A model generated the notes under the pieces. The model saw nothing but the letters and a program-made list of their open reading frames with translations. It did no database searches and had not been told where the DNA came from. A program made the translations under genes and the position numbers. Below, piece by piece: positions 8,871 through 37,116 of a stretch of 64,000 bases of DNA. Source of the DNA: Schmidtea nova (taxonomy: Eukaryota); contig CM097883.1 of the NCBI GenBank assembly GCA_044892505.1, forward strand, positions 286,006,001 to 286,070,000, written 5' to 3'. Each line of letters begins with the position of its first letter. Within the stretch, counting starts at the first letter, position 1.

Positions 8871-9571
8871 AAATTTCTAAACGTTTTCATAGTTTTTAAA
8901 ATCTTACAATCATAAGCCCTCAAAATTTTCTGTATGGGGATAGGGTAAATTATTATTTTAGTTAATTTTAAAAACGTGGTAAAATAAAAAAAATTATATA
9001 TTTATTTTCCTGCTTTTTCGTCTTCTGTGAGTAAAAATCTTTTATTATTATATATTTTGTCATTTTCATCACTTTTACAACCGTTTTTTATAAGGGTCCC
9101 CCTAACCCCGGGTCCGGACCTGTGGCAAATTGTTGAATATTGCATTATCATCGGGGTCTGAGCTATGTTCGAAATTTCAAGACTTTAGCTCATCGAAAAG
9201 TTAGTTAAAAATCGATTACAAATGTTGGGCCCGCCAAATCACCTAAAAACACAATAAAAGAGCGAAAACATGAAACAATAAAGAAATAATAAAAATAAAA
9301 ATAACAATAAAAACAAATTAAAAACAAGAATAAAATGACAAATAATAATTGATAAATTTTCAGTAAAAGGAAATTTTGAAAATAAACCGGCAAACAACAG
9401 CAAAAGGGGGCCTGAAATAAGAAAAGATAGAATTAAATAAAATAATAGTGCAAATAATTAATTAATTACTTGGAAAATCAGGACCACCCAGCGAGAAACC
9501 GGAAAAGGAAACAAAATAATGTTTAGGTTAGAATAAAATAATAAAAATACTTTGATGGACGGCCTGATCCT

Positions 9572-9606
9572 GATTGGTCAATCCAACCAGACGGATCAGT
9601 ATAAAT
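9572..9606 (+). promoter_or_regulatory. Putative LTR promoter (inverted CCAAT + TATA) in solo LTR
   Basis: GATTGGTC...GATCAGTATAAATA, same motifs and similar spacing as 15654-15688. Confidence 0.55.
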
Positions 9607-10649
9607 ACCGATCCAAAAATCACAACTGACACACTTTTTAGAAACTTACAATCAAGACTAAACTTTGATTTTAAGAAATATTTTTATTTAACGGAACGAT
9701 ACTTTTTCGAGAAACAGATTTTCATCAAATACAAGGAACCACACATTCGAGTACGGAACGTAATTTGTTTGTTTTGATTATTTATTGTATATGAAATTTT
9801 TATGTATCCATGATTTTCATCATTTAGTTAATTAAAATTTTATGAAACTTTTAATTTTCTCTATTTAATTTTTAATCATGCATATAGTTATACTTCCTAG
9901 GCTGCTCACGCGGCAAGGGAGTCCGAGTCGTCGTTGTGGGGCCCCAGGGTCTCACATGGCGGTTCCACCTTTTTAGTGTTGATTTTAGATTCATTATTTT
10001 AACTTGATAACATGTCTATAATTCGATCCAGTTGAAAAATTTTATGAATGATAAATTAATTTATTTAATTCGGGGTTGCACAGGGGACGAGCGTCGATGG
10101 CTAAAGGGTATAAAGGCGGAAAGCGGATTGATAGGGAGGGACCCCTGGTAGGGCGCACTCATCGGTAGAGTTTTAGGCCAAATAAATCTAAATTGGACCT
10201 CTAGCAATGAAAAGCAACGAAAACCAAACAGCATTAATTCGAATATTTTTCGCTGAAATAAAAATTTCAACACAGTTCAAGGTCCGATTTCATTCGGAAT
10301 CAACAACTCGACTTTAAAATCATAATATCAATAAATTCCGATCGCATTAGAATGCGACGGAAATCCAAGTTGAATTAAACCATTTTCTAAAAATAGACCG
10401 ATCGTCGTATATGGCGCAGTTTCCTAATTTATCTTCCGATCGCTGTATATAGCGCGGAAAATCTTTATTAAATTTTGTATGTCCTGAATGCTATACATAG
10501 CACAGGATTAATCATGAATCCCTTATTTCCGACCGTGGTAGATCGCGGCGAGACAAATTAACATAACCATATCATTAAATTAAATTCGGTTGATTTTACA
10601 TGTTAGCAGTAATCCTCTTACAATTTTTTTTTGGTTTATATTCAATAAA

Positions 10650-11150
10650 ATGATACAGATGCCGATCGCCGAAATTATGAACCAATTAGCTCAAATACGG
10701 AATGTGGAACAAGGGAATACAAAAAATGGAACGATCTTGCAACTCAAGGATCTACCGGCACCGATATTACGAACCCTCAACTGCCAGATGTATAAGTGGC
10801 GACATGGGTTTGGTCGAAGATGCCCGTTCTCAATATGGACAGGAGGGAACGACCAAGTATACTATCGTGGAGGACCGAACTGGCCAATTTCCCAGAGGCC
10901 TTATTCAAATAAGTTTGGCCGAATGATCATATTAATAAAGAACACAGATGGACGAACAAGCCGTATAATTTATTGGGGGGCATATCCCTCGCCGAGAACT
11001 GTGTCAACTAGGCCTGCACGAGTTTCTACCGCGGAAACCGTTCGGCAAGGAATGCCAGAAAGGACAACCCTCATTCTCTTGGGCTCGCCTTCGTCAGATG
11101 CCGATAAACAGCGAAATGCACAGCTTGTTTCGGCGATGAAAAATGCTTGA
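10650..11150 (+). CDS. Unknown 166 aa protein inside solo LTR
   Basis: Intact ATG-started ORF, more GC-rich than flanks, no recognisable domain; absent from the 15295/37307 LTRs. Confidence 0.5.
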   Translation: MIQMPIAEIMNQLAQIRNVEQGNTKNGTILQLKDLPAPILRTLNCQMYKWRHGFGRRCPFSIWTGGNDQVYYRGGPNWPISQRPYSNKFGRMIILIKNTDGRTSRIIYWGAYPSPRTVSTRPARVSTAETVRQGMPERTTLILLGSPSSDADKQRNAQLVSAMKNA

Positions 11151-11320
11151 CAATGATTAATTTGTGTTAAAATATTAATGTTCATCAGTGATTTTTGTTT
11201 TGAGTTTTCTTGTTTTGTATTATTAAGCCGGTCACATTTTGAATTCTAATAAGCATGTATTCAGATTTTAAATTTTCACATAATTTAACCATAAAGTGAT
11301 TATCGTAAATAAATTATAGA

Positions 11321-11917
11321 ATGACCACCGATTTGGTACAAAGGGAGTTAGAAAAGATGTGGCGGATCCGGAGAGCCCAGGACAAGGAATTGGGTCTCCT
11401 CAAAGCACAATTAGTCAAAGCCGAGGCACAAGTCGCATATTTGCGCAAAAGCTGGTTTGCTCCGGCCAGGATGAAAGAGCAAATCAGTAAAACAAAACGC
11501 GCCCAACAGACTGCAGCCGATTACCAAATGGAATGGGAGGCTACAAAGATAGAACTCCGAAAATGCCTCCATTCCGTAACTGCCTCATATATTGAGAAAG
11601 AACTCAGAGATCAAATCCGTCCGGTCACGTATCAGGAATGGACATCGGGAAAGAAAACCGTAAACTCAGTTGGCACGGATGTCGCTGAGCTAATTGAAAG
11701 CCAAAATGAGCCGGTTCCAGCAGTAATTCCATCCACCTCAACGACAAACGCGCACCAGAAACGCAAGCGCATTGGGCAGAAACGGCGAAGACAAAGGAAA
11801 TTGTTTGCCCAGCGATTACAGAGCCAAGTAGATGGCCTACATCAAATGACCGAAGAAGAATTATTGACGGAAATTTTTCCTCCGGCTGGAGTTTTTTCGG
11901 AACTAATAAAAAATTGA
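11321..11917 (+). CDS. LTR-encoded coiled-coil protein with Arg/Lys-rich motif (solo-LTR homologue)
   Basis: Ungapped hand alignment to the 16935 ORF gives about 50/101 identities; basic motif QKRKRIGQKRRRQRK; preceded by TTATAG|A ATG. Confidence 0.8.
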   Translation: MTTDLVQRELEKMWRIRRAQDKELGLLKAQLVKAEAQVAYLRKSWFAPARMKEQISKTKRAQQTAADYQMEWEATKIELRKCLHSVTASYIEKELRDQIRPVTYQEWTSGKKTVNSVGTDVAELIESQNEPVPAVIPSTSTTNAHQKRKRIGQKRRRQRKLFAQRLQSQVDGLHQMTEEELLTEIFPPAGVFSELIKN

Positions 11918-13374
11918 ATAAATTTTCGTGTTATCTTAAAAATTTTATCGTTCATTTCAATTGATTCAGTAACTTGACAAATGATTAGATAAATGTAGAA
12001 TAAAAGTATAAACTCATCTCACAAAATACCTAATAAAGGTAAATAAATAATTAAGCGAGCATTTGTTAAAACACTTCATGCAAAATGAGCAATGTTAAAG
12101 ATAAATTTTCTAAAAAGATTATTGCGGAATACCTAAGCAGATGATTTAAAGCATAAGTCCTTCTAACGGCAGCAATGAACCCGTAAACATAAATGGGGAG
12201 TAGTACTAGCAATAGTGCTCACCTGCCCATCATTGTTTAACCACCCTGCGCATCACCAACTTGATTATATAGGGAAGTAGTCAAGGGCGCTTGAGTGTAG
12301 AATTGCAATTTTATGCATGATCATGGATGAGGGATCCCTAGTCATTGTTAGAGCATTTTTCTTCTAACCCCTCCATGAACCCAGCACAAAATTTGTACCG
12401 CACACACATACGTAAAAGAAAAGCAAGTTAATAAAAACGTTGTAAAAAATGTATTTTCATAATCCGTTTCAAGTGACATAAAATGATATTAATCATAATT
12501 CAAATGTGTTATATATGGGGCGCGGGTTATATGTGAAATGTTTAACTTTTTATATAATTCATTGACATTTATGTGGTGCGTGTTATACTCCGAAATTTAG
12601 GGTTTATAAAATGCTTGCCGCCATATAACCCTTTCTAAACCCCATAGAAAGTTTATTTAGTAAAGTAACACTTTTTTGATCGGCAACTTTACACAGAAAC
12701 TATGTCATGTCACCGGTTATTATTTTATAATTTGGAAATAAAGTAAAACGTTCCATCGTGGTTAAAATTTCTGAATTACTAAAACTTTGATAAAATTCTA
12801 AATACTAAGAACAGTATTTTCTTTATTATAAAGCGGACACGACTAACCAAGATACGCATTACTACATCGGTCAACAACGTTTGGGCATGAGCAAACGAGT
12901 TAACTCGTTACCGGTCAACAAAGTTTTAAAAAGAGCTATCAGAAAAAAAGTTGTGGCAATCGAAGGATTAAGTACCACTGATTACAAAATTCGAATGAAA
13001 TCAGTCACAATATTTGTGGAGGAAAATTAGAAAAATTATCTTATTTTCATTTTAAAATTATTATGATTAAATAAAAATGTTCTCCCTAAAGTTTTTATTG
13101 AAGGAGGAAATCTTGGGGACATTATTTGCTTTTTTCAGTATTTTATAAATATCTTTTGACTGACTGTCCGTTGTTGAAACTATAACGGTTTCAGAAACTA
13201 AATTATTGGGATTAAAATATTAGTTAAAGCTTTACTTTGAATTGCAACATCATTTGATATTTAATTGACGTATAACTTTAAATCTGAATGTTTATTGCCG
13301 TTTTACTCTGAACGCTACCAATAATTGACATTTCATTGTCTTTAAATAATAAAATGCATTCATTTTTGGGAGAA

Positions 13375-15104: not shown

Positions 15105-15653
15105 ACTATGATGAAATTCGTAAAGCATACATGATCTTCATTCTGCATTTTTCCTGTCATTTCTACAGATTTAATGCATATTCATCAAATTACTGAAAAA
15201 ATATTTAAACATTAAACTTACTTCATAAAATGGAAAAAAAACAAATAGTTTTCATATATTTAAACAATTTATTAGTTGATTGAATATGTATTATTGTTGG
15301 ATCCACCATTTGGTCCACATTTAGCATAAAAAATAATAATTATAAGAAATAAAATAAGAATAAATTAAAATAAATATAATTATGAAAATATCAGTAAAAA
15401 CGAATTAAAATGTAATAAAGAATATTAATTTTCTATCAAAATTTAGAAGAAAGTAAATAGAAAATGTAAAAGTGTTAAAGAAACAATGATATTTAATTAT
15501 ATTTAAGGAAAAATAAAGAAATAATAAAGAAAAAGAATTACAAAAAATATTAAAAATCAAAATAGCAAATCGCTAGCAATTGACAACAAAATCAATTGAT
15601 TTTAGCGTAATAAAAGTTATTAATTGTGCTGATCTGATGCTCAGCTTCACGCT

Positions 15654-15688
15654 GATTGGTCCAAGCTTTGATCTGATCAGTATATATA
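15654..15688 (+). promoter_or_regulatory. Putative LTR promoter (inverted CCAAT + TATA)
   Basis: GATTGGTCC...GATCAGTATATATA, conserved in the divergent solo LTR; also present at +22012 in the 3' LTR. Confidence 0.55.
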
Positions 15689-15913
15689 CTGATACAGATC
15701 CAGATAATTTTAATGTTTTTTATATGCTTTTTAGTTATTGAGAATATTCAAATTTGAGATCATTCTTAAAACCAAAGGTATGGATTATTGATTGTTTTTA
15801 TTTGTGTAATTTTATTGTGAAGTTCTGACATTGCCATTATGTTTATCCAATTAATAAAATGTTTTTCGAATATGATTTATTTTTTTTTGTGGTTGAATAT
15901 AGAATTAAATCAA

Positions 15914-16202
15914 GCTTCTTCCACTGTGCAATCAGTGGTAGGAGACGACTTTATATATCTATTATATATCTTTTATTGAGCTTCTTCCATCGTGTAATCG
16001 GTGGAAGGAGGCAACATTATGTTGTGATATTAACAATTAGGTTGAAGTATATTTTTATAAACAATTTTTGGGTCGAGCTTCTTCCACTGTGAAATCAGTG
16101 GAAGGAGGCGAATATATATATTATCTATATACCGTATTTATAGTAGAAAATTACGTACGATTTAAGGGGCTCCGATCACCGTGCAATCGGTGAAATGGAG
16201 GC
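15914..16202 (+). other. Four tandem stem-loops with TG(C/T/A)AAT hexaloop
   Basis: Hairpins at 15914-15946, 15980-16012, 16078-16110, 16168-16202; inner stems ACTG/CAGT, ATCG/CGGT, ACTG/CAGT, ACCG/CGGT. Confidence 0.7.
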
Positions 16203-16668
16203 ATACTGTGCCGAGTAGAAACGACTGCTCCGTACAGTTAGGCCGTCCGACCGGTGTAAAGCGCCGTGACGAGGGTAGGAATTCTTATTTAACAATGATT
16301 TTTAACCCTATTTTTCACTGGATAGTATAACCAGTTGAAGTTTTATTTTATAATCGATTTAAATTTTTTGAGTTTATAGTTAAGTTGAGTTTTGATTTTA
16401 GTTGGATACAGATGTAACTGCGATTTGAGTAATCTGATTTTACCTTGAGATTCACAGAGTGTTAGCGTATATTTTTCGATTGTCACATCTGGGGTTTGTG
16501 GGCATAGAGCGGCAGATACACGGTTAAGAATTTGTACAAAATATAATTTTAATAACAACATAAAAATCGATAACTCTAATAACGTAGTGATCTACTACGC
16601 AAGTAACATAGCAGCAATAGGCTATAGGTTCAAACATTCCACATAAATAATTAAACATAATTGCTTAT

Positions 16669-16806
16669 CCTGAACCCTGTACATAGGGCAGTGGATCTTA
16701 GTTTATTTTAATAATTTTCTTATCCTGATTGCTGTATATAGCACAGGCGTAACTAAATAAAATGCATTATGAAATAAATGTATCTGATCGCTGTACATAG
16801 CGACAG
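16669..16806 (+). other. Three bulged stem-loops with GTA(C/T)AT loop
   Basis: CTG-AA-CCCT-GTACAT-AGGG-CAG; CCTG-AT-TGCT-GTATAT-AGCA-CAGG; CTG-A-TCGCT-GTACAT-AGCGA-CAG; counterparts at 10398-10551. Confidence 0.7.
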
Positions 16807-16934
16807 TGTTGAAAGTGTAATAGGTAAATCATTTTCTCTTCCTGAATTCGCAATTAATGATTGTCGAAAGTATGAGAATCGTTCAAAGCAAGACTGCCAA
16901 TTTCATGTTAATAAACCATTTTGAATTTTAGAAA

Positions 16935-17525
16935 ATGTCAGCCAACACAGCAACTAATCAAGCCGAATTAGATAAAGCATGGAGGATAATTCGCAGCCTC
17001 GAAAAGGAAATGCTGCGAAAATCGGAAAAAATAAAAGAAGCCGATGGCATAATCTCCAACCTAAAGAAAAGCTGGTTCAATCCAGAACAAATGAAAATAC
17101 AAATTACAAAAACTCAACGCTCTCAGCGAGCTAACAGCGAATTACAAATGGAATTAGACGCGACGAAGATGGAATTAAAGAAATGCCTAAAATCCGTAAC
17201 GGCATCGTATTTAACTCAAGAGCTCAGCCAGCTCATTCGACCAATCATTTATCAGCATTGGGCTGACGAGAAAGCAGGATGCACAAAAGGAACGAACACC
17301 GAGGAACCCTCTCAGGTTCAAGCAACAACAGCAGCCAGTACACCAAAGAACCCGATAAATCCAGAAGTCAAGAAGAAAAAGAAGAGCAAGATGGGCGCAC
17401 GTCAGCGTCGCTGGAAGAAACAAGTTCTTCAGCAATTGGCTCAACAATCCAAAGAAATTCCAGAAATTGATTTGACCATGAATTTTGCAATATCGGATGA
17501 AGACATTACCAAATACTTTGAATAG
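16935..17525 (+). CDS. LTR-encoded coiled-coil protein with Arg/Lys-rich motif (196 aa)
   Basis: Intact in both LTRs, homologous ORF in the solo LTR; basic motif KKKKKSKMGARQRRWKK; preceded by TTTTAG|AAA ATG. Confidence 0.8.
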   Translation: MSANTATNQAELDKAWRIIRSLEKEMLRKSEKIKEADGIISNLKKSWFNPEQMKIQITKTQRSQRANSELQMELDATKMELKKCLKSVTASYLTQELSQLIRPIIYQHWADEKAGCTKGTNTEEPSQVQATTAASTPKNPINPEVKKKKKSKMGARQRRWKKQVLQQLAQQSKEIPEIDLTMNFAISDEDITKYFE

Positions 17526-18124
17526 AACTTCTGTGATTTAGTATTTTCGCTTATTAAATAATTTTTGTTTGTATTTATTTTATGGTAAAGTATAGAAAAT
17601 AGAGTGATTTATTAAAAAATTTAAAATAATTTAAAGGAAAATATAGAATAAATTAACTATACATTAGAATTAACAATAAGATTAACATAAATCTAATAAA
17701 CAATAGAAGCATTTAAGAGATAATAAATTGTAATTGATGAAGGATTATTTGTTGATATTGTAAAGAAGGGGGCTGAAAGAAAAGTAGAGAGTTGAAATAT
17801 ATTGTAGAGAAAGGGGGCTAAAGAGACATTGAAATGAAAGATAATGGATGCGGATAGATTAAAGTTAAAGCGTAAGTCCTTCTATCGGCAGCGAGACGAA
17901 CCCGTGAACATAAATGGGGAGTAGTTTTAGCAATAGAGCTCACCTGCCCATCATTGTTCAGACACCTTGCACTTTTCCAACTCGATTATTACAGGGAAAT
18001 GATCGAGGGTGCTCGTGTGATATGTAAGCATTTTATGTGAGGTTTTGGATGGAGGAATCCCTAGAGCGTTTTGTTTAATTTACTATTTTTGTTTTAACCC
18101 AATCCGAAACCAACAACATAAATT

Positions 18125-18142
18125 TGGGGGCTCAGCCGGGAT
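18125..18142 (+). promoter_or_regulatory. Primer-binding site, tRNA-Pro type
   Basis: TGGGGGCTCAGCCGGGAT 6 nt after the LTR end; resembles the canonical tRNA-Pro PBS TGGGGGCTCGTCCGGGAT. Confidence 0.85.
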
Positions 18143-18514: not shown

Positions 18515-18976
18515 ATGAACGACAAATTAAAGGAAACAGAGGAATTCCTAAACACGGAAAACAAAACATACGATGAATTATGCGAGAAAATAAGTCGAAT
18601 AAGAGAATCCGGATTCAAAGAACCCATGACACAAACTGAAGAGACAACAGAGCTGATAAAAATAATGGAAAGAGTAGACAAAATAGATATAACTACTAGA
18701 TATAAATGGTACCGAACGAGATTAGAAAATGCTGATGTAAACATAAAATGCAGACAGTTAGAGCAACAATTAACTCCAACATACAACAAGTGGACAATAC
18801 AAGGAACTGAGACAGCTAAGAAATTTAAACTGTGTTACATATGTCGAGAAAGGGAGAATAAAATCATGTTTTTACCTTGTGGACATTTTCGGTTTTGTGG
18901 AATCTGTGCAGCCAACTGCGACAAATGCCCGATGTGCAATCTCGAAATAGACGAAAGAATTACTGTGTATTTATAA
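18515..18976 (+). CDS. Coiled-coil + IAP-type C3HC4 RING protein (no BIR)
   Basis: C-terminal CYIC...FLPCGH..CGICA...CPMC...ITVYL matches IAP/MDM2-type RING ends. Confidence 0.85.
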   Translation: MNDKLKETEEFLNTENKTYDELCEKISRIRESGFKEPMTQTEETTELIKIMERVDKIDITTRYKWYRTRLENADVNIKCRQLEQQLTPTYNKWTIQGTETAKKFKLCYICRERENKIMFLPCGHFRFCGICAANCDKCPMCNLEIDERITVYL

Positions 18977-19019
18977 TAAATAAATGATGAATTTAGTAAT
19001 ATTATTTGTAATAAGTAAA

Positions 19020-19150
19020 ATATGAGAATTCATTGTTCATAATGAGAATTAATATGAGAATTCATAATGAGAATTAATATGAGATGAGAATTAATATGAG
19101 AATTCATAATGAGAATTAATATGAGAATTGACAACGAGAATTTATAATGA
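19020..19150 (+). repeat. Short ATGAGAATT-based tandem repeat
   Basis: About ten degenerate copies of ATGAGAATT at ~12 bp spacing. Confidence 0.8.
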
Positions 19151-19613
19151 AAATTGATAATGGCAATGACAGAAATCATAATAACAATTGATATTTATAA
19201 ATAATTTTTGAGCTGCTCACGAGTAGTCCGTTAAGCACCCATTGGGAGGAACCAACTGATCAACTTACCCGAGATGTATAGAAAGGGGCCCATCGCGGAA
19301 ATTGGAAAGCTTTTGTGATGTGACTGATCACCACATCTTGCATTAGTAGACCAATGCGATCTTTTTGTATGTTTTGGTTGGGGTGAAAGGTAGGGACAAT
19401 CTAATGAGGTTTAAGTGCATGCAGAAAATACAAATAAAAATGAGAGAATAGAACACTGATCAGTGGAAGTCGAAAGAACATTAAGTAAATAAGTAGAATG
19501 AAAGTTAATGTGATAACTCTCATAAAAATAGAGATAATTCAGCTGAATGATAACTAGCGAAGTGGATAATTGCGGTTAACCGGTTAAAGAGATTAGTTAA
19601 ATACCTTGTATAA

Positions 19614-20338
19614 AAGGGTCAAGGGCAAATAAGCCATATTAGTTACTCTGAAAGAAGGGTCAAGGGCAAATAAGCCATATTAGTTACTCTGAAAGAAGGG
19701 TCAAGGGCAAATAAGCCATATTAGTTACTCTGAAAGAAGGGTCAAGGGCAAATAAGCCATATTAGTTACTCTGAAAGAAGGGTCAAGGGCAAATAAGCCA
19801 TATTAGTTACTCTGAAAGAAGGGTCAAGGGCAAATAAGCCATATTAGTTACTCTGAAAGAAGGGTCAAGGGCAAATAAGCCATATTAGTTACTCTGAAAG
19901 AAGGGTCAAGGGCAAATAAGCCATATTAGTTACTCTGAAAGAAGGGTCAAGGGCAAATAAGCCATATTAGTTACTCTGAAAGAAGGGTCAAGGGCAAACA
20001 AGCCATATTAGTTACTCTGAAAGAAGGGTCAAGGGCAAATAAGCCATATTAGTTACTCTGAAAGAAGGGTCAAGGGCAAATAAGCCATATTAGTTACTCT
20101 GAAAGAAGGGTCAAGGGCAAATAAGCCATATTAGTTACCCTGAAAGAAGGGTCAAGGGGCAACGAGCCGTATTAGTTAATTACTCTGAAAGAAGGGTCAA
20201 GGGCCAACGAGCCGTATTAGTTAATTACTCTGAAAGAAGGGTCAAGGGCCAACGAGCCGTATTAGTTAATTACTCTGAAAGAAGGGTCAAGGGCCAACGA
20301 GCCATATTAGTTAGTTACTCTGAAAGAAGGGTCAATGG
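19614..20338 (+). repeat. Tandem array A: 13 x 41 bp then 4 x 45 bp units
   Basis: Unit AAGGGTCAAGGGCAAATAAGCCATATTAGTTACTCTGAAAG; period counted from AAGGGC positions 19621...20154, then 45 bp variants. Confidence 0.95.
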
Positions 20339-20339
20339 C

Positions 20340-20590
20340 AACATAAGAATTTGAACCTATGATTGCAATAGCGATAGCAACACAAGGAATGTGAACCTGT
20401 GATTGCGATTGTGGATAGCAACACAAGGAATGTGAACCTGTGATTGCGATTATGGATAGCAACATAAGGAATGTGAACCTATGATTGCGATAGTTGATAG
20501 CAACGTAAGGAATATGAACCTATGGTTGCATTGTGAATAACAACGAAAGGAATATGAACCTAAAATTGTAGTCGTCAACGACGTAGGAAT
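20340..20590 (+). repeat. Tandem array B: six degenerate 40-41 bp units
   Basis: Unit like AACACAAGGAATGTGAACCTGTGATTGCGATTGTGGATAGC; GAACCT at 20353, 20393, 20434, 20475, 20516, 20556. Confidence 0.85.
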
Positions 20591-21226
20591 AGTGAGCATT
20601 AGAGTTTGAGTAATAAAAGTAAAGATGATTAAGTAAACTAGAGATTCAGTATGCATACGAGTAGAAATAGGAATAAGAGAAATTAGAGTTGACCGGAAAA
20701 ACCGGTAGAAATAGTGAGAATAATGAATAATGATGAGAAATTAGAGATGACTGGAAAATTTGATAGGAATAGTGAGAATAGTGAGTAATGATGATATAAT
20801 GAATAGTGATAAAATGATAATTGAGTCAGGAGAACTCAAGGGAATTAAAGCGTTTGAGCGACAAATTAAATTGGGAGACTGAGGGAAAAGTAACGAATTT
20901 ATTGGATAACGATAGATAATTATTACGACCATATAGATAATTGTTACCAGTGAATAGATAATTTAAATAGACTTAAATAAAGGGGAAACCGGGAATGGGG
21001 AAACAATGGAAACCCAATAATGAGGAATAAAAGCGCAACGATAACAATGATGTATCGTTGAAGTGACTTTTTAATTTAGATATACGGAACAGAACAAGTC
21101 AAAACAACCAACCAATCAATCAGAATACGATAACAGAGAAACAGAAAAATTGATAAATTAAAGAAAAGTAAACCGAGATCAAGAGCAGTTAAAAATCAAG
21201 AAGTTAATAATTCACAAAGAAATAAA

Positions 21227-24200
21227 TTGAGATCAAGAGCAGTTAGTGCTACAATCGAAAAAGTTGATAATTCACAGAGAAATAAATCGAAACAAAGAGC
21301 AACCAGTGCTACAAAGAAAACAAATCCTAAAGGAAGCAAATCAAGAAGAGTAATAGTAGAAAAGTCAAAAATCGAAAACAGTAAATTAACAAAAACTAAC
21401 GAAAGTGAAACAGAAGAAAGTGCAAGTGAAACCTACGATAATTATAATAATACGGAAGCATCAGATAACGAGTCAATAAACACAGAAGAAGTAGAAGCAG
21501 AAATTGATAATAATTCAAACGAAACGAATAACGAGCATACTAGTGAAACAAGAGGAAACGAGAGTAAAACGACACAAGACAGCGGAATCGAAATAAACGA
21601 ACATAAAGAGGAAATTAAAGATAAATTTACTGGAGAACCATTCAATGGAGATGCCAGCAAGTTAGAAACGTTTTTAAAAGAATTTGGTATATTTGTAGAA
21701 GTGTGTAAATGGAAACCAGAAACGATAAGGAGCAGAATTCAGTTATATTTAAAAGACAGTGCGTTAGACTTATATTTAGAAGCTAAAAATTCGGATGATC
21801 AACTCGATAGTTGGGAAAAGATAAAGAATTTTTTCCAGCAAACGTTTGGAATAAATAAAGTATTAAATGAAGCATTTACAGAATTTTCAATGAGGAAGCA
21901 GAAAGTTAATGAATCAAATGCAGTATATGCAAGTGAATTAAAGAAATTGGCTAAATTAGCATTTAATCAAAATAGTCCAATGAGTCCAGAATTAATGGCA
22001 GCAATTTTTGTGGGGGGATTGAGAAGACCCTATATAAGAGCACAAGTTGGATGCCAAGGTTGTAAAACAATAGATGAAGCGTTGGAAATCGCCAACAGAT
22101 TTGAATTACATATGATCGGAAGTGAAGGAAGAATTTACCTAGCAATGGATACGACACAAAACGAACAAGCAATAAAGATAAATAACCATATTCCGAATTC
22201 ACAGCAATTAAACCGACCACCACCTCAAAGGAGAAATGAGGGAAACAAAATACAAAATTACAGAAACCAAAATAATTATAGTACGCAAGGACAAACAAAG
22301 CAATGTCAAACCTGTGGAAAGTTAGGACATTGGCAACAAGAATGTTTCGCGAATTTAAATTGTAAAAAGTGTGGAAGAAAAGGACATTCGGAAAGTAGAT
22401 GTTACCTGAATTCATGTTATAACTGTGGACAACCAGGTCATATGGCAAAGAATTGCCAACAACAAAACAACCAGCAAAGGAATTGGTCGAACAACGGAAA
22501 TCGACAAAATTATACGAATCAACAGAGTAACGGAAACCGTCAGAATTTTGAAAATCAACAGAGTAATTATAACCAGAATAAAAGTACCACCAAGGAAATA
22601 CATTTATTACAAGAAGTTCAGAGATTGACAGAGTTAATAAATAATACACCGAGAGGAAATCAACAAACGAATCAACAACAAATGAATATGATGAGAAAAG
22701 TGGAAAGTGAAAATGAACGACTAAATCGAGAAAGTCAAGCACGACATGCTCAAGAATGGGCAAGAATACAAAGAGAAGACGAACAGAAACGACAAGAAAG
22801 AGAACGACAACCATTGAGAATTAATATGATGAGAGCAACGAATCAAACAAGAGATAACAAAGAAGATATCGAACCAGAAACAAACCAGATAAACCCAAAT
22901 CCGGAAGATGAAGAAAACCAAAAAGAAATAGTACAAGAAAACGAAGAAGTTATTGAACAAAAAATGATGTTGGTAGTCATGCCAAACGATCATGTATTTC
23001 GATTTGAATATGATGAAAAAGAGGAAGTAGGAGTATTAATTAATAAAGTAAACAAGACGATTCCGGGAATGACGAAACTACCCCGAGAAGCATTTTTACA
23101 GACAGAAGACGAAGCAGCAATAAAATTGAAACCAACCGACATATGGAAAGATTTAGGAGTACCAATGAATAAAATGAAAGTCACAGTTATCCAAGAAATA
23201 GAAGAAAATAACGATGAAGAGAAATCAAAACCAGTAACAAAAGTCAAAAGTAGAGCATTGAAGATATTTGAAGAGAAAATCAAACAGAGAAAAGCGATGG
23301 AGATAGAGAAACGAAGAGGCCAAATAGAAGAACCAAAAAATAATGACAAAAAAGAAGAGATACCACCAAAAAATGTACCAGATAAAGTAGAACAGACAGC
23401 ACATATAAACATGTTAAGAAACTTAACTAGAGAATTTTCAGATGTAGAAAGTGACAGTGATGTCAGTAGTTTAGCAGGAGATATGCTAAAAGAACCAGAA
23501 AATGAAGACAACAAGATAGAAGTAGCGAAGACGCCAGAAAATATACAAATTAAAGAAGATGAAATTCAGAAACTATTAGATAATGCGTTAGAAGTGATTT
23601 ATAACGAAGAATTTATTGATAAGAAGCGATATCGAAAATTTATAAGAGCAGTATTCCGAATGAACTATAAAGAACGATTACAAAGTCGTGAAATAGAGAT
23701 ATTATCAGGATACGTCGTCAAACTATTAGATGAACCACTCCATGAATACATAATTTTAATAGAAATAAACGAATGTTCACCAAGAATTTGGATCAAATCT
23801 CCATGCACGAACGAAATTTATCGATGGGTAGAAGACAGATTAGGAAGTTCGTATAAAAACAAATTTATATATTCAGGAAATGAACTTGTAAGACGAGCAA
23901 CGCATTTGGTAGAAACAGGCATATGGCCAGGAGAGATAACAACATTATCAATATGCGACAATAAGAAAGAGGAGAATTTACAAGAAATCGCAAAGGAAGC
24001 AAATATGTGTTTTGAGATGAGAATTAAACCTCAGTTAGTAGAAAGGAAAGAAAGAATTCTCAGAGAAAATTTAAATTCACTAATAGAACAAATTATTCAA
24101 CAAATCGACAAGAATAGAGAAGAATTAACGAAAACTGAATATGAGAAATTAAAACAATGCATCGAAAATATACGAGATACCAGCCATACGAGACATTCGT

Positions 24201-27200
24201 CATACAAGACTTGGAAAGTGATCGCAAAAATGGGAAAAGCGATGTTTAAACGAGGAGAAATAGGAGATTTAAAAATCAAAGTGAAATTACCAAACGAAGA
24301 CACAAAAGAAATTGAAGTAATCGCGGATTGCACAATAGAAGAATTAGTTGATGTTATCAATGAGACTTTATTACAACGGGAAAAAGAAGACGAATTAGAA
24401 GACGATATCATCATAAAATATAATGAACACGTACTAGGAGATCATGATGAGAGACGATTATATAAAATCGGTATATGGGATAATCACCAAACAATTCACG
24501 TTATCAGAATGGATGATACGTCAAGAGAAACACCAAAAGACGAAAAAAGGAGACAAGAACGTCGAAGAGAAGCGATGCACAAACTAAGACAAATAATAGA
24601 AATTTATCGAAGATGGCAGATACAGCCAGAATGGGAAAATGTATTAGGAGAATTAAACTTCAACGAACGCCGATTAACACCAGTAGAGAAACACTGGGAT
24701 GTTAAAGAGAAATGCTGGAAAGCAAAAGGAGGTATATATGAAGAGGAATTTAGACCAGAAATGGAAGATAGATATGAACCAGAAATCAGAAGAATTTGTA
24801 TGGTAACAAGAAAAGTCATGCCAACAGATTTGGATGGACCAGAAACCGCAGCAATATGGTTAGAAACGCAAAGACGAAAAGCTGACGAACTTATTGAATT
24901 ACTAAAAGGAAATGTACAAGGAAAAAGGCGAACGATCAAAGGATTAGCCGAATTCTTTGTAGCAGGCGGCGAAGATATAATCAGTTTAAGAAAAGTAGCA
25001 AAGGCAGTAACAGAATATAAACGAGTTAACGAGTGGTGCCCAGAACAATTAGACAATATAATCAAGAAATGGAGAAACCAAGAAAACGCCCAAGAACCAC
25101 CGCAGAAAATACATTTAAGGATAATATATCCAGATCGAGAAAAAGAAGAGCTTTGGGTAAGATTAACTGAAAAGATTCGAGATGTTAAAAAGAGATTAAA
25201 ATATGAACCACCATTTCATCTACAACATCAAGGACGATCACTAGAAAACGATATGGAAATTTTGATAACGCCAGCACAGTTAGAACTGGCAAATACGTTA
25301 ACAGTAGACGCAATAGCAGGTCAACCATTAAAACTTAAAGAGAAAAGAATAAAAGAAAGTGGAGATACTCAGAATCTAAGGAAGACGATGCAGATAAAAC
25401 CAGGAACAAGCGCAAGGCAGTACGAAACAACATCAATTAAAATCCAAGAAAGAACTCGACCACAACCATACGATACAGAAGAAATATTAACAGACAGCGA
25501 TGATATGCTAGAAGAATTAACCAATTTGACAAAAGAAAAAGGCAATAATATTTTCGAAAGAGTACAAGAGTTACCCACAACGTCACAAGCAATCAATACC
25601 CAAGATGAAGTTGAGCAAGAAATAGAAATAGAAGAAGTGAACGAAATCTCTGAAGAAGAAGCAAGAGGAGCAAATACAGAAAACGAACGATTTACACAAG
25701 AAATGGAAAAATGGTGGGAACAGAGAAATAATGAACCAAGAGATGTTACAGAAGAAACTGGACGAGAAACCAGATTAATTGAAACAGGTACAACAATGGA
25801 TAGACGACCTAGGCGTAGACCAAAGACAGATCCAACCAACATAATCAACAAAACAAAAGAAGAAAGGAGACAAGAGAAATGGGAAGTATGTTTAAAGAAA
25901 CTCAACAAAATAGCAGAAGCGAAAGACCAAGAAATAACGCAAAAATGTCAAGGCGAAGGATGGATATCAAAAACACTAATGGAAATATTGGCGATAATTG
26001 ATCCAGAATTGAAAAAATGGTGGAGAATAAACGAAATAAGCGACAAGGCTAAAGCATTACATAGCGCAATCGCACCAATCTTACCCGAACTGATAAAAGA
26101 GAAGACAAAATCAAGCCATTTAGATTGGCAAGGGACCACAACGTTGATAAAGAGGTTAACTGAAGATGCAGAAAATGATAATAAATATGTGATAGCAATT
26201 GCGTATACAATTTATAACTTATTAACATTGAGTAGAGGTAATCCAAAATCCACAGCAATAGAGAAGCACATCAAAAATACAGCAAATATCATAGCAAAAG
26301 AAATAGAACCATACGTCATCAGTAAAGGAGGATGGGAAACATTTGCTAAAACGAATCAAAGAAACAGTCAAGCAAAGAATATGAAAAAGAAATTTGAAGA
26401 AATTTTAGGAGAATTAGAAAAAGAAAAGTCAGGAACAGGAAGTGGAAAATCTTCACTAAACCTGAATTCAATCATAATGATGATATTAATATGGCTAATT
26501 AGCGTTGAAGGAGCAACGGCGTTCGAAGTATTTGATTGCGACCAGGTGGCATTAGGAGAAAAATATTCATTAAGAGGAACCGAACAATGCAAAGATGCAA
26601 CTCCAACAGAATTAAAAGTATTACATAGTAAACAAATATATCACGTATATCAGGAAGCCGACTTAATAAAGACAACAGTTAATGAATGTAAAATATATAA
26701 AACAAGATTTGCTTTTTATTGTGGACATCGCCACTACTCTGCAATCGTAATGCCAGGAACGGAAAGGGAAGCGATAATGTTACAAGGAGAAGATTGCAAT
26801 AAATTGTTCAAACATGGAGAAGTCGAAACAAGAGATCGAATAAAGATAAGAGGAAAAGCTGGAGTAATACTACAACAAACTTATTATGTAGCAGGAGCTA
26901 TCACAGGAGGAGAAGGTTACTGTCAAGGAGCAACATATCCAATATTTGGAGTACCAGCAACTAACATGGTAGTGATCGACACATATACGGTAGAATTAAA
27001 AGCGTATGAAGCATATTTTGACCCAGCAACAGGAGAAATGAAGACGTTATCAATGTGCAAAATTGAAGCCAGTACTTGTCAAACCGGTATGTCAACTTTA
27101 ACATACATAGCAAAAGCAAATGAATGCCAATTACAATTATTAAAGGAAGCAGAGTTCGACGAGGTACAAGGAAAAATCTTTCAGGAAGAAGAGGATGATG

Positions 27201-27565
27201 AAGTAGCAAGAGGAAAACGTCTACAGGGGACAGTAAAAGGAGAGAAACCGTTCACAACTAAAGTACAAGAAAAAGAGGTGAGAATGAGAGAGACGCCAAC
27301 AGTATTGGTTACATCAAACGCAAATATAGGAATGAGGTTTGTAAAAGGAAAACCGGCATTAAAATGTGGTGTTTCTATGTTAGAAACAAATTATCCAGGT
27401 ATTTATGTATCAAGACAAGCAGCACCGAATGCAAAACCTAAGATAGATACTACAGACATCAGATTGCACGTATATTTAAATAACAAATTGGATTTTTATT
27501 TCATAAAGGCCAAGCATCAATGGAAAAAATATACTACGATCTCATTAACAACGACTGTATATTGA
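21227..27565 (+). CDS. Polyprotein part 1: Gag (CA + 3 CCHC) - Ubl-like modules - Bcl-2-like - signal peptide - N-half of glycoprotein
   Basis: 2112 codons; frame open from 21134, first in-frame ATG only at 21890; domains listed separately below. Confidence 0.9.
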   Translation: MRSRAVSATIEKVDNSQRNKSKQRATSATKKTNPKGSKSRRVIVEKSKIENSKLTKTNESETEESASETYDNYNNTEASDNESINTEEVEAEIDNNSNETNNEHTSETRGNESKTTQDSGIEINEHKEEIKDKFTGEPFNGDASKLETFLKEFGIFVEVCKWKPETIRSRIQLYLKDSALDLYLEAKNSDDQLDSWEKIKNFFQQTFGINKVLNEAFTEFSMRKQKVNESNAVYASELKKLAKLAFNQNSPMSPELMAAIFVGGLRRPYIRAQVGCQGCKTIDEALEIANRFELHMIGSEGRIYLAMDTTQNEQAIKINNHIPNSQQLNRPPPQRRNEGNKIQNYRNQNNYSTQGQTKQCQTCGKLGHWQQECFANLNCKKCGRKGHSESRCYLNSCYNCGQPGHMAKNCQQQNNQQRNWSNNGNRQNYTNQQSNGNRQNFENQQSNYNQNKSTTKEIHLLQEVQRLTELINNTPRGNQQTNQQQMNMMRKVESENERLNRESQARHAQEWARIQREDEQKRQERERQPLRINMMRATNQTRDNKEDIEPETNQINPNPEDEENQKEIVQENEEVIEQKMMLVVMPNDHVFRFEYDEKEEVGVLINKVNKTIPGMTKLPREAFLQTEDEAAIKLKPTDIWKDLGVPMNKMKVTVIQEIEENNDEEKSKPVTKVKSRALKIFEEKIKQRKAMEIEKRRGQIEEPKNNDKKEEIPPKNVPDKVEQTAHINMLRNLTREFSDVESDSDVSSLAGDMLKEPENEDNKIEVAKTPENIQIKEDEIQKLLDNALEVIYNEEFIDKKRYRKFIRAVFRMNYKERLQSREIEILSGYVVKLLDEPLHEYIILIEINECSPRIWIKSPCTNEIYRWVEDRLGSSYKNKFIYSGNELVRRATHLVETGIWPGEITTLSICDNKKEENLQEIAKEANMCFEMRIKPQLVERKERILRENLNSLIEQIIQQIDKNREELTKTEYEKLKQCIENIRDTSHTRHSSYKTWKVIAKMGKAMFKRGEIGDLKIKVKLPNEDTKEIEVIADCTIEELVDVINETLLQREKEDELEDDIIIKYNEHVLGDHDERRLYKIGIWDNHQTIHVIRMDDTSRETPKDEKRRQERRREAMHKLRQIIEIYRRWQIQPEWENVLGELNFNERRLTPVEKHWDVKEKCWKAKGGIYEEEFRPEMEDRYEPEIRRICMVTRKVMPTDLDGPETAAIWLETQRRKADELIELLKGNVQGKRRTIKGLAEFFVAGGEDIISLRKVAKAVTEYKRVNEWCPEQLDNIIKKWRNQENAQEPPQKIHLRIIYPDREKEELWVRLTEKIRDVKKRLKYEPPFHLQHQGRSLENDMEILITPAQLELANTLTVDAIAGQPLKLKEKRIKESGDTQNLRKTMQIKPGTSARQYETTSIKIQERTRPQPYDTEEILTDSDDMLEELTNLTKEKGNNIFERVQELPTTSQAINTQDEVEQEIEIEEVNEISEEEARGANTENERFTQEMEKWWEQRNNEPRDVTEETGRETRLIETGTTMDRRPRRRPKTDPTNIINKTKEERRQEKWEVCLKKLNKIAEAKDQEITQKCQGEGWISKTLMEILAIIDPELKKWWRINEISDKAKALHSAIAPILPELIKEKTKSSHLDWQGTTTLIKRLTEDAENDNKYVIAIAYTIYNLLTLSRGNPKSTAIEKHIKNTANIIAKEIEPYVISKGGWETFAKTNQRNSQAKNMKKKFEEILGELEKEKSGTGSGKSSLNLNSIIMMILIWLISVEGATAFEVFDCDQVALGEKYSLRGTEQCKDATPTELKVLHSKQIYHVYQEADLIKTTVNECKIYKTRFAFYCGHRHYSAIVMPGTEREAIMLQGEDCNKLFKHGEVETRDRIKIRGKAGVILQQTYYVAGAITGGEGYCQGATYPIFGVPATNMVVIDTYTVELKAYEAYFDPATGEMKTLSMCKIEASTCQTGMSTLTYIAKANECQLQLLKEAEFDEVQGKIFQEEEDDEVARGKRLQGTVKGEKPFTTKVQEKEVRMRETPTVLVTSNANIGMRFVKGKPALKCGVSMLETNYPGIYVSRQAAPNAKPKIDTTDIRLHVYLNNKLDFYFIKAKHQWKKYTTISLTTTVY
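21635..22456 (+). other. Ty3/gypsy-type Gag capsid and nucleocapsid
   Basis: PFNGDASKLETFLKEF...SWEKIKNFF...Q..NES...Y...L; three zinc knuckles CQTCGKLGHWQQEC, CKKCGRKGHSESRC, CYNCGQPGHMAKNC (22304-22456). Confidence 0.9.
22961..25315 (+). other. Up to four ubiquitin-like modules, three preceded by helical segments
   Basis: Clearest: LKIKVKLPNEDTKEIEVIADCTIEELVDVI...IIIKYNEHVL...LYKIGIWDNHQTIHVI (24269-24510); weaker at ~22961, ~23747, ~25109. Confidence 0.5.
25880..26350 (+). other. Bcl-2-like domain
   Basis: BH2-like EIEPYVISKGGWETFAK (cf. Bcl-xL HLEPWIQENGGWDTFVE), degenerate BH1-like LDWQGTTTLI, BH3-like ISKTLMEILAIID. Confidence 0.7.
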
Positions 27566-28400
27566 ACAGAGAAATATTAAAGACGAAACTAGCAGTAGCA
27601 ATTACAAACCCGGATAGTGCGATGCCATTACTACCACTTAACGAAGGTCATTTTGGAAGAGTAGTTGGAGAAGTTATGTATGTATATATATGCCAAAAGA
27701 CACAAGCAAACCTAGCAACAACGACCAGAATACGACAAGGACAATGTACCAACGAATTGGAAATTGAATATAAAGGGAAAATAAGATATGTACAACCAGT
27801 GACAAGAATCATTAACCCAGTTAGTTTTGAACCAAACCCTTTCAATTGCAGCAATGCATACGGACCATTATATCAGAAACCAGACGGGAATTGGGTCATG
27901 TTTCCGTCAAGATCAGAAGTACAACCACCTAGAGAATTTGAATTGATGCAACTTTCAAAAGGACGAAAATTTTCCAATATAGATGTAAATAACGGAGGAA
28001 TTTACAGTGCAAAAGATCTTGAAGCAGCACGACAAAATATATTATTTCCAGCTAGAAGAGAAGCAGTATTATCTAGCATTGTAACGATAACAGGAGGAAC
28101 AAGTTACCAAGGAGGACCAAATTATGAATTATTATTGTCACCAGCACATTTTAGGAAAGCGACAGAAAATATGATGAAAGCAATGTGGGGACGATTTTTA
28201 ATTTTCGGACAAATGATGGCCGGAATATTAGGTGTAATTTTAATCATACAAATAATACGAGTGATAATCACACAAATGCTAGCATGTTTTGATATTTATA
28301 AAAGAGAAAAGAAAGTTAATTGGAAATTAATAGCAGGATTTTTACCATTTTTAGCAAAAACGATGGTGTTACATGGTCACTCCAAAGATATTCACAGAAT
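26468..28400 (+). other. Env-like glycoprotein of chuvirus G / herpes gB-like (class III) type, split by a -1 shift at ~27493
   Basis: Signal peptide SIIMMILIWLISVEGATA|FEVFDC, conserved Cys pattern (FDC, CKI..R..FYCG, YCQG, YLNNKL, DCILNREIL, GEVMYVYIC), furin-like RGKR (27209-27220), C-terminal W..FLIFG...AG TM helix. Confidence 0.75.
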
Positions 28401-30798: not shown

Positions 30799-30824
30799 CA
30801 GAAACTGTAAAAGGACCAAGCGTA

Positions 30825-31400
30825 TTGACAATGATGCAAAACATCAAATTGACAGAAGAAGTATTAAACTGGAAAATACCAAATACAAATAAACCAGCAT
30901 TTAAAGTTAACAAGTTTATGGAGAAAAATCGAAATTGGTGTATCCAAAGCGCACTAATAACTTATATATGGCCCGAAATTGTAGAAATTTTCATGAGAAG
31001 AGAAGACCTGAGATTTACAAACAAGCCTAAAGAAACGGAAAAGGTAGTCAAATGGAAAGAACTGATGAGAACACACCTCCAAAGTTGGATAAAAGCCAAG
31101 AAAGAAATTATACAGTATCAGTTAGACAAGAAAAAGATACCCGAAGATATAGAATACCAAGAATTCGAAGCAAGTAATTTAACATCACTATATTATGCAA
31201 AACTAATAGAAACAAGTAATGTCGAGGACGACATTTTTAACGAGCTAGGGAGAGATAATAATACTGACAAAGACGATGATGATAATAATGAAAACAATGA
31301 CGACGAGAGAAATAAAGACGATGATGAACAATCTAAAACAATCATGAAAAGAAAGGAACAAGTTACAGAAGGAATCCATTATTCAGACCAGAAGTATTAA
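30825..31400 (+). CDS. Probable polyprotein part 3 (ankyrin-like start, acidic tail)
   Basis: Frame open from 30768, overlapping the end of part 2 in the -1 frame; ETVKGPSVLTMM echoes the preceding repeat KTVKDNSILDVT; D/N-rich tail; its stop overlaps the next ATG (TAATG). Confidence 0.7.
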   Translation: MTMMQNIKLTEEVLNWKIPNTNKPAFKVNKFMEKNRNWCIQSALITYIWPEIVEIFMRREDLRFTNKPKETEKVVKWKELMRTHLQSWIKAKKEIIQYQLDKKKIPEDIEYQEFEASNLTSLYYAKLIETSNVEDDIFNELGRDNNTDKDDDDNNENNDDERNKDDDEQSKTIMKRKEQVTEGIHYSDQKY

Positions 31401-33364: not shown

Positions 33365-33484
33365 AGGGTGGGATATGACTGTAAATAATATTGTAAATTA
33401 CAAAGCATTACCGTATATAGTATGGGTATTAGTATTATAGAGTATATAAAAAGAGAAGAGAAAAATAATAATGTATTTTAGAAA

Positions 33485-33739
33485 ATGAATGTACAAGGAG
33501 AAACAACCGAAATGACTTTGACTATGCGATGGAAAGCACAATGTGAAACGTTAGTTCGATCAATTAATGCACTACAGAATCAATTGGTAGAGAAGCAAAA
33601 TATATTAGCAGATTGTTACAACAATATCTTTGAGCAGTTACATAAAATAGAAGAGCAAGAGAATAATAACAGAACTAACCAGAGAGAATCAAAGATTGAG
33701 ACAAACGATGGAAATAAATCAACTAACAAGAAGAGATAA
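33485..33739 (+). CDS. Small coiled-coil protein (84 aa)
   Basis: Heptad-like LVRSINALQNQLVEKQNIL; preceded by TTTTAG|AAA ATG like its neighbours. Confidence 0.55.
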   Translation: MNVQGETTEMTLTMRWKAQCETLVRSINALQNQLVEKQNILADCYNNIFEQLHKIEEQENNNRTNQRESKIETNDGNKSTNKKR

Positions 33740-33913
33740 ATCAGAAGGTCAATGGCTAGATTGGGTAATAAATGGATTAGAGAATGGTATAGAACCAGAT
33801 TCAACGAGCGAACCATAGTCAAATTGTAGCGGAAAATTGTAGATATGTAAAAATAAAACTCTAGAAAAATCAAAACAAAGAACAAATCAATGTATGTATA
33901 TATTATTGTAGAA

Positions 33914-35269: not shown

Positions 35270-35374
35270 CAAGAGAAAATGATCGTGTAAATAAACTGTA
35301 CAAAACAATATAAAATGATAAATAAACAAAAATAATAAAAGTAGTCTGATTGAAAATATTTGTAATTATAGAAA

Positions 35375-36478: not shown

Positions 36479-36552
36479 AGAGAAGCGAAAATTCTTTGTA
36501 AATATCTGTAACATAACAATGTCAAACTGTATTGACAAATTTGTAAAGTGAA

Positions 36553-37116
36553 ATGAAGAAGCTCGCAATACTGATAATCCTAAATGTAATCGAAATCACC
36601 CAACAAAGAGAAGACCGTCCGATATCAAAAGAAAATCTACAAGTCTTACCCGAGAAAATCTATAAAGAAATAGATGATCTATTAAAAGAAGCAACTAAAG
36701 AAATTTCTCAAATTCAATTGTCAACAGCACCTAAACCAGTATCAACGCAACAAACCCTGTGCAAAATCAATAACAAATTAGAGAAGATTCGAAAAACCTT
36801 AAAAGAAAGTAAAGAAACTATAAAGAATTTACATCGAGCAGAAATTCAATACCAAGAGAGATGGATCGTTGCGATTATAATCGTATTAACAATTAGTACA
36901 ACAACCTGCGCAATTACCATTCTCATCGCAGTATACAGAATAAAAGTTCTTAAACAAAAACAATCAATCATCAATCAAACAACAGCATATGATGACAATG
37001 CCCGAAGACAAATGAGAAATCAGTTCAACAGAATACGAACCCAATACGAGTTACCAGCAATTCCACAGAACCAGTCCAATCCAGTGCGAGTTATGAACTA
37101 TTTGTATAAACCATAA
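36553..37116 (+). CDS. Small type I membrane protein (187 aa)
   Basis: Leader MKKLAILIILNVI, helical ectodomain, TM WIVAIIIVLTISTTTCAITILIAVY. Confidence 0.7.
   Translation: MKKLAILIILNVIEITQQREDRPISKENLQVLPEKIYKEIDDLLKEATKEISQIQLSTAPKPVSTQQTLCKINNKLEKIRKTLKESKETIKNLHRAEIQYQERWIVAIIIVLTISTTTCAITILIAVYRIKVLKQKQSIINQTTAYDDNARRQMRNQFNRIRTQYELPAIPQNQSNPVRVMNYLYKP

Follow-up and report, generated by a model that had tools for sequence, protein, structure and literature searches.

A selected gene inside the long terminal repeats of a Burro-like giant gypsy element from Schmidtea nova

Comparative analysis of a 64,000-nt stretch of Schmidtea nova DNA (the window) indicated that an ORF of 196 aa, located inside both long terminal repeats (LTRs) of a giant retroelement, is a real gene and not a chance reading frame, and that its protein would be made from a spliced RNA while the genomic RNA keeps the intron. 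The protein constitutes a new family so far, as no relative was found in the libraries searched. The element type is already known. The literature searched made no mention of a spliced gene inside its LTR or of the encoded protein.

Host element and LTR families

The following features of the element and of a neighbouring solo LTR were mapped in the window.

9223 to 12386, forward strand: solo LTR of family B, target site duplication CAAA, holding a 198-aa homologue of the LTR gene (11321-11917) and a second LTR ORF (10650-11150)
15295 to 18118, forward strand: 5' LTR of family A, 2824 nt, TG...CA ends, target site duplication TTAT
17865 to 18118, forward strand: conserved terminal LTR block common to families A and B
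18125 to 18142, forward strand: primer-binding-site-like sequence, presumably of the tRNA-Pro type
18515 to 37116, forward strand: internal region with a RING ORF, tandem repeats, gag-CCHC / mononegavirus-type fusion protein / protease, and ankyrin, TRAF-MATH and other accessory ORFs
37307 to 40131, forward strand: 3' LTR of family A, holding the second copy of the ORF (38947-39537)

Family A denotes the LTR type of the window's full element and family B that of the solo LTR, with family C as an intermediate type whose three copies came from a genome search for LTRs with the junction-type pattern pair. The two LTRs of the element carry four differences, two of which are inside the ORF. The first-pass annotation, made from the letters of the window, had described the DNA flanking the ORF as barely alignable between LTR types; this was accurate next to the ORF but not for the last ~200 nt of the LTRs, which are 79% identical (over 201 nt), nor for the CCAAT/TATA core that both types have in common. 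Over the terminal block the depth of look-alike contigs was far above that of the rest of the LTR, and its folding z was only -1.8.

Domain content and order identify the host as a Burro-like giant gypsy element. It is 24.8 kb in size and has CCHC, PF24664 and protease in that order, with one frame break in the window copy and in a single frame in a sister copy (L135). A Pfam-type domain search of the window element detected RING, ankyrin and TRAF-MATH cargo, and a search of the same element for a BIR domain found none. Reverse transcriptase (RT), RNase H and integrase were searched for and are absent in the window element and in L135, both of family A; all three are present in a 26.6-kb family B element (L132) that also has the LTR gene. 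Family A is read as a non-autonomous derivative. In the parts of the published account that treat them, the planarian Burro/GYPSM1 elements exceed 20 kb and have long LTRs, a CCHC gag and an in-frame, mononegavirus-type env that precedes the protease, together with ankyrin, RING and MATH-TRAF cargo and accessory ORFs (PMC6431247). The window element resembles them in size, long LTRs, gag-env-protease order and cargo, but as a family A member it is without RT, RNase H and integrase, and its LTR-internal gene, intron and poly(A) layout go unmentioned in those parts of the Burro account (PMC6431247). No Burro LTR gene was found in the literature searched, and primary Burro papers outside that search may describe LTR ORFs.

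Several further observations were made along the element. The stretch directly before the 3' LTR (37285-37306) is devoid of a purine run and has a conserved AGGGGTCCCC palindrome in its place. The interval that separates the RING ORF from gag holds tandem arrays of 41-45 nt units (19600-20530). In both families (window 21134-21890; L131 5837-6420) the gag frame stays open over ~190-250 codons upstream of its first ATG, and a TTTAG lies at ~21080, upstream of gag, whose start may be spliced or non-ATG. Outside the element, a piggyBac-type DDE transposase ORF (50317-51813) and a GIY-YIG fragment (42839-43234) are both unrelated to the LTR gene.

The LTR gene and its family B homologue

16935 to 17525, forward strand: LTR gene, 196 aa, with a twin copy at 38947-39537 in the 3' LTR
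17370 to 17420, forward strand: codons of the basic motif, aa 146-162

The 196-aa ORF is present in both LTRs, and its 198-aa homologue in the solo LTR is 50/101 identical over the best ungapped stretch of 101 aa, exactly as first described; alignment likewise confirmed a basic motif behind a variable linker in both ORFs. Protein identity between families A and B is ~35-39%, with synonymous sites saturated between them, and a degenerate 10-codon motif gave 980 matches across the genome in comparison to 0 for the reversed control. The basic motif, likened to those of Tat and Rev in the first-pass annotation, is arginine-rich only in the solo-LTR type (4 K, 6 R, as is typical in family B); in the copy of the full element it is lysine-rich (7 K and 3 R in 16 aa, as is typical in family A).

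The family B LTR contains a second gene (window 10650-11150), which encodes ~110 aa ending in IIYWGHIP in most sister copies and has an AG immediately 5' of an inner ATG at 10659. This gene had no Pfam match and is absent from family A. Its window copy shifts to another frame near codon 131 of the searched stretch, and at locus L073 it occurs three times with a spacing of 775 nt, a tandem duplication within the LTR.

Selection on the LTR gene

One hundred copies were sampled, comprising the best 30 matches to each of the two proteins and 40 copies picked for variety among the first 100 motif matches listed. The ORF was intact in 75 of these (29/30, 26/30 and, for the motif-picked copies, 20/40). 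Among the 71 distinct intact copies pairwise omega ranged from 0.08 to 0.17 at dS 0.03-0.8 and was 0.30 for the 11 closest pairs; 1803 remoter pairs were saturated. Codon models were fitted to 17 non-redundant intact copies of family A and 14 of family B, excluding the search-motif codons, and for these sets, which are biased to intact frames, omega was 0.22 (A) and 0.16 (B), with 2dlnL of 386 and 586 against omega=1. Omega was <1 in every region of the ORF. The basic motif (aa 144-163) was its most constrained part at 0.11 (A) and 0.044 (B), and values for the linker were 0.27 (A) and 0.35 (B).

Changes shared among copies were then separated from private ones using 39 copies of family A and 41 of family B, with broken copies kept and four twice-fetched loci dropped, over codons 8-110 minus the search motif plus codons 144-163. 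Shared changes were predominantly synonymous (synonymous to other 178:59 in A and 233:49 in B; omega about 0.10 and 0.07), whereas private changes were not (18:44 in A and 10:41 in B, with six stops each; omega 0.72 and 1.34), and the contrast was highly significant (Fisher p 4e-11 and 3e-18). The purifying selection proposed in the first-pass annotation was therefore borne out by dN/dS across LTR copies, at 0.16-0.22 overall and about 0.07-0.10 for shared changes. As shared changes are constrained and private ones neutral, selection operates during element replication and not on copies in place. Judged from these substitution patterns, inserted copies decay, solo LTRs included, and the accompanying proposal that solo LTRs keep a working gene as a selected state finds no support, since private changes are neutral and both the motif-picked copies (20/40) and the solo/other class (9/24) include many broken ones. 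This class of 24 copies held 15 intact and 9 broken ORFs, and 12/40 copies were unclassed. Expression from young solo LTRs is possible, as the putative promoter and intron and an intact ORF are all there.

An identical 1-nt frameshift occurred in both LTRs of 3/21 sister-LTR pairs, which indicates that it was already there at insertion. The same 21 pairs (26 synonymous and 59 non-synonymous changes, 6 stops) were dropped as a neutral control, as one truncated copy dominates them.

Promoter, intron and a spliced copy

Upstream of the ORF, the family A LTR contains the following candidate transcription and processing signals.

15655 to 15688, forward strand: reverse CCAAT box and TATA box (TATA 15681-15688)
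15778 to 16931, forward strand: candidate GT-AG intron of 1154 nt, with donor AAAG/GTATGG, branch-like TTAAT at 16908-16912 and acceptor TTTTAG/AAAATG
15853 to 15858, forward strand: intronic AATAAA, located 75 nt downstream of the donor, with a U-rich tract behind it; likely the poly(A) signal of the LTR
15913 to 16201, forward strand: set of four similar hairpins, each with a UG-N-AAU loop, as is typical for family A
16670 to 16806, forward strand: three small hairpins tipped UGUA(C/U)AUA, folding z only -1.5

In most A and B copies the CCAAT/TATA core lies 375-400 nt into the LTR, and we infer from it a transcription start near 15700-15712, ~410 nt into the LTR. As this core is upstream of the ORF, the gene would be downstream of the promoter and outside U3. 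The TATA box is centred in an inverted repeat in both families (15668-15702; 9591-9617), which could be a DNA dimer site, or could form a hairpin only in RNA reading through U3.

All 75 intact copies have a YAG 1-4 nt 5' of the ATG (68 TAG and 7 CAG; these copies are relatives, so that the counts are not independent), and it is preceded by branch-like TTAAT, CTAAT or CTGAT. On the donor side family A keeps AG/GTAT amid an otherwise shifting region, and family B has GTAC or GTAA there. A search for a TATA box near the ORF start was aimed at exon junctions of this kind and fixed the acceptor side, and its sole match (L101) is a complete 1.64-kb LTR lacking exactly the intron. The end of its exon 1, CAACTGAAG, is the same as in L107 and L115 directly before their gtatga, and it runs straight into AAAATG, a sequence that follows YAG in 24/24 of the nearest relatives. 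For 19 of these 24 the donor could be placed as well, which gave introns of 878-1154 nt. The ORF of L101 is itself frameshifted. The simplest reading of its sequence is a reverse transcript of a spliced RNA that ran through the primer site. A DNA deletion between two AGs would mimic this structure, with 4-5 candidate AGs on the donor side, and L101 is a single locus among LTRs in which ordinary deletions are also found.

Applied across the genome, one pattern pair returned 136 copies with YAG, three family C copies with their own acceptor and the one spliced copy. Further candidates were rejected: L076, L084 and L099 carry deletions whose ends do not coincide with splice sites, and 3/4 candidate spliced copies from the pattern search were the unspliced family C copies. 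No further spliced copy was found for family B (two patterns), nor one joined to other acceptors. In four public runs of unknown kind, flank and LTR were covered alike with no joint at the intron, and the L101 junction was uncovered in them, so that these runs speak neither way.

Splice-acceptor-like sequences are more widely distributed in the element, as the RING ORF, the ORF at 35375, the ORF near 33480 and the inner ATG of the TRAF ORF each follow a YAG, and in the sequence inspected upstream of the last ORF and of gag there was no clear YAG. With most accessory ORFs located behind a YAG, the element would face the splicing problem of a complex retrovirus.

Poly(A) signal and RNA structures of the intron

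A hexamer was present 55-76 nt after the donor in 23/23 scorable family A copies (34 examined), of which 20 were AATAAA and 3 ATTAAA, and by alignment column it occurred in 29/29 A copies in comparison to 14 for the next best column. At the matching place family B had ATTAAA (13), ATTATA (10) or neither (2) and never AATAAA among 25 scorable of 27 copies. From these signals R is probably short, with the ORF within a 2.2-kb U5; ATTAAA columns 3' of the ORF reach 25/28 in family A, and together with the family B hexamers they leave room for a long R.

The region 15905-16280 folds better than 100/100 shuffles (z -6.4), and its first strong hairpin would be ~200 nt downstream of the transcription start placed above. 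Two to four UG-N-AAU hairpins were found in 31/34 A copies, in comparison to a single hairpin in 1/26 B copies, and family B has other hairpins at that place. Two stem positions alternate between C-G, U-A and U-G, although pairing was required by the search and this is not a free test. The small UGUA(C/U)AUA hairpins, whose tips we take to be Pumilio-element-like, were common to all families (32/34 A, 23/26 B and 2/3 C copies). Hairpin type and basic-motif type both differ between A and B, a pairing that rests on two lineages.

Predicted protein architecture and searches for relatives

AlphaFold2 was run on an alignment of 31 sequences and predicted two long helices (3-47 and 50-114), a disordered stretch (116-149), a third helix (155-173) and a short helix at the end; with a pTM of 0.27, the tertiary arrangement is not given by the model. 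The predicted layout is a coiled coil over 3-114, kinked at W47-F-x-P50, then the linker, the basic motif, a helix and an acidic tail. A heptad phase is conserved over 8-47 with 91% hydrophobic residues, and the coiled coil suggested in the first-pass annotation agrees with both this phase and the two predicted helices. Residues K150, G154, R158, R159, K162 and Q163 of the basic motif are invariant or near-invariant, there is one invariant cysteine only, and in 31/31 proteins the C-terminal 32 aa have a net negative charge (-1 to -7) and spaced hydrophobic residues. No leucine-rich CRM1 export pattern was conserved across both families; an export-type tail pattern was seen in 9/17 A proteins (class 1d) and 1/14 B proteins, and atypical signals are possible.

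Homologues were sought in a set of 5.8 billion sequences, for which the queries were 3 sequences, 31 sequences and longer proteins, and none was found; a full HMMER scan of 1.84 billion representatives gave 0 matches at E<=0.001 and PDB sequences gave a best E of 0.45. Pfam had nothing above its cut-off across the 31 members, including bZIP and other DNA-binding families, and a PC-Esterase match in 9/31 members was taken as a helical chance match. Among structural searches, the best ESM Atlas values (0.88 and 0.85) were below the useful range, Foldseek returned 0 matches from pdb and 0 from viral structures at E<=0.001, and VIA-align returned generic coiled coils only (Z<8). The searched libraries are poor in flatworm repeats, and other planarians may hold relatives.

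Possible functions of the LTR protein

The reading that we tentatively favour is that the product may be a Rev/CERV-type regulator, which would bind the intron-containing RNA, keep it unspliced and aid its nuclear exit. A gene that would be translatable only after splicing, in an LTR of which nearly all copies keep the intron, the poly(A) signal and the hairpins, creates the situation where Rev-like proteins act. Transcription would begin ~410 nt into the LTR, and U1 bound at the donor would suppress the poly(A) signal of the 5' LTR in the manner of foamy viruses. Splicing would remove this signal together with the hairpins and place the ATG 3 nt past the junction, and the genomic RNA would have to retain the intron to rebuild a normal LTR. 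More speculatively, the coiled coil may oligomerise, the basic helix may bind the intron hairpins and the acidic tail may recruit an export or splicing factor, the outcome of which would be a spliced-first, unspliced-later switch.

Consistent with such a regulator are the position of the basic motif as the most constrained part of the ORF (0.11 and 0.044), the conserved splice signals with their TAG/CAG swaps at the acceptor and the exactly spliced L101, the joint difference of hairpin and motif types between A and B, and the precedent of CERV in a gypsy element, as far as the excerpted account of it extends (PMC10309623). Weighing against it is the lack of a conserved export signal: CRM1 signals are present in Rev-like proteins, and foamy viruses do without a Rev-like protein, both according to the excerpted account in PMC3856414. 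The lysine-rich motif of the family A protein could just as well be a simple signal for nuclear or nucleolar localisation, splicing is not peculiar to this ORF, and a packaging signal alone could explain intron retention. In addition, AATAAA never occurs in family B at the matching place and a long R is possible, the pairing of hairpins and motifs comes from two lineages, and the spliced copy comes from one locus. We regard as unlikely the more elaborate proposal of a complete Rev-like switch inside the LTR, in which promoter, donor, poly(A) signal, family-specific hairpins, acceptor and a cognate coiled-coil gene would have an origin separate from those of Rev, Rex and CERV, while the protein would co-diverge with its hairpins and young solo LTRs could supply the regulator in trans.

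Alternatively, the product could be an LTR transcriptional activator similar to Tat or Tas, whose coiled coil dimerises, whose basic helix binds promoter-near DNA or nascent RNA and whose tail activates. The net negative tail with spaced hydrophobic residues in 31/31 proteins, the predicted basic stretch running into an amphipathic helix, and the TATA box inside an inverted repeat in both families are all compatible with this role, which we nevertheless consider somewhat doubtful because the 31 members had no bZIP or other DNA-binding Pfam match, the long coiled coil comes before the basic region and not after it, and the hairpins begin ~200 nt past the inferred start, unlike TAR, a hairpin at the 5' end of its RNA. 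A nuclear host-interference factor, directed against PIWI or chromatin silencing or acting in the nucleolus, would use the basic motif as a mere localisation signal and would gain early, many-copy expression from its location in the LTR. The lysine-rich motif in family A and the second, unrelated gene in the family B LTR would suit it, as would the many host-directed cargoes (RING, TRAF-MATH, ankyrin) of the element, of a kind also given in the Burro account as excerpted (PMC6431247), and the PIWI silencing of Burro1 in the relevant part of PMC8532177. The low omega of the motif beyond simple charge instead suggests a shaped binding surface, and no host homologue was found in the searched sequence sets, and we consider this explanation somewhat doubtful as well.

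Retroviral packaging signals lie in hairpin clusters of the 5' leader, where the LTR hairpins would also be situated if the protein were a particle or RNA-chaperone component that binds U5 hairpins in the cytoplasm and helps packaging or dimerisation. Spliced copies are rare, and in the family without RT the LTR gene is retained alongside gag, env and protease, as might be expected of such a component; however, gag already has CCHC knuckles and no structural likeness to a virion protein was found, and we judge it improbable. That the ORF is non-functional, with its conservation arising from DNA or RNA signals or recent copying, is very nearly excluded: half of the motif-picked copies are broken (20/40) and the gene is known from DNA alone, but the protein is still ~35-39% identical between families whose synonymous sites are saturated, and omega <1 in every region means that the codon tests largely refute this explanation.

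Comparison with known systems

MMTV sag and HIV nef are LTR-overlapping genes in U3, upstream of the promoter, whereas the window gene would be downstream of the promoter, inside the LTR and behind its own intron. Tat-type activators have a cysteine-rich core and a hairpin at the RNA 5' end; the LTR protein has one invariant cysteine, its first strong hairpin is ~200 nt downstream, and its coiled coil precedes the basic region in the reverse of the bZIP order. The features tested place the LTR protein outside both the Rev and the Tat family. It resembles Rev, Rex, Rem and Rej as a small basic-motif protein, likely from spliced RNA, of an element that must export intron-containing RNA (PMC3856414, in the part that treats these proteins), but it is without a conserved leucine-rich export signal, its family A motif is lysine-rich, and it has a predicted coiled coil of 110 residues, is encoded wholly within the LTR and has no Pfam or structural match.

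In the excerpted description of CERV, from the gypsy-type C. elegans element Cer1, a novel protein from a spliced mRNA is needed for unspliced RNA export; it is 517 aa long, has exons in common with gag, carries a candidate export signal and folds into globular domains termed M and G (PMC10309623). Both are gypsy-type elements with a novel protein from spliced mRNA, in our case putatively so, and CERV has a candidate NLS and predicted coiled-coil contacts in the same description. The LTR protein, at 196 aa and with its own LTR gene, is set apart by that description, and no likeness to CERV emerged from the library searches described above. As outlined in the relevant part of PMC3694450, the foamy virus LTR has its major splice donor 5' of the poly(A) signal, and U1 binding suppresses the 5' site. 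Donor and poly(A) signal follow in the same order inside the window LTR, which in addition holds the acceptor and the whole gene, whereas foamy viruses are described in the excerpted literature as encoding no Rev-like protein. Among plant elements with extra 5' ORFs, such as Retrosat2, whose ORF0 is upstream of gag-pol (PMC3485330), and Ogre (PMC6431247), both as characterized in excerpts of these sources, the extra gene is likewise in or beside a long LTR; that of the window is within it.

Significance

LTRs are usually regarded as control regions without coding content, and such LTR-overlapping genes as are known are in U3. The present analysis describes a spliced gene that is under selection, encodes a new protein family and is situated downstream of what appears to be the LTR promoter, with hundreds of copies and a probable genomic splice fossil. 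The LTR gene may offer a handle on the nuclear exit of intron-containing Burro RNA and on the choice between two poly(A) sites. If its product is Rev-like, the switch would have evolved independently once more outside the retroviruses. For planarian genomes, gene and repeat annotation will run into many LTR-derived copies of this gene.
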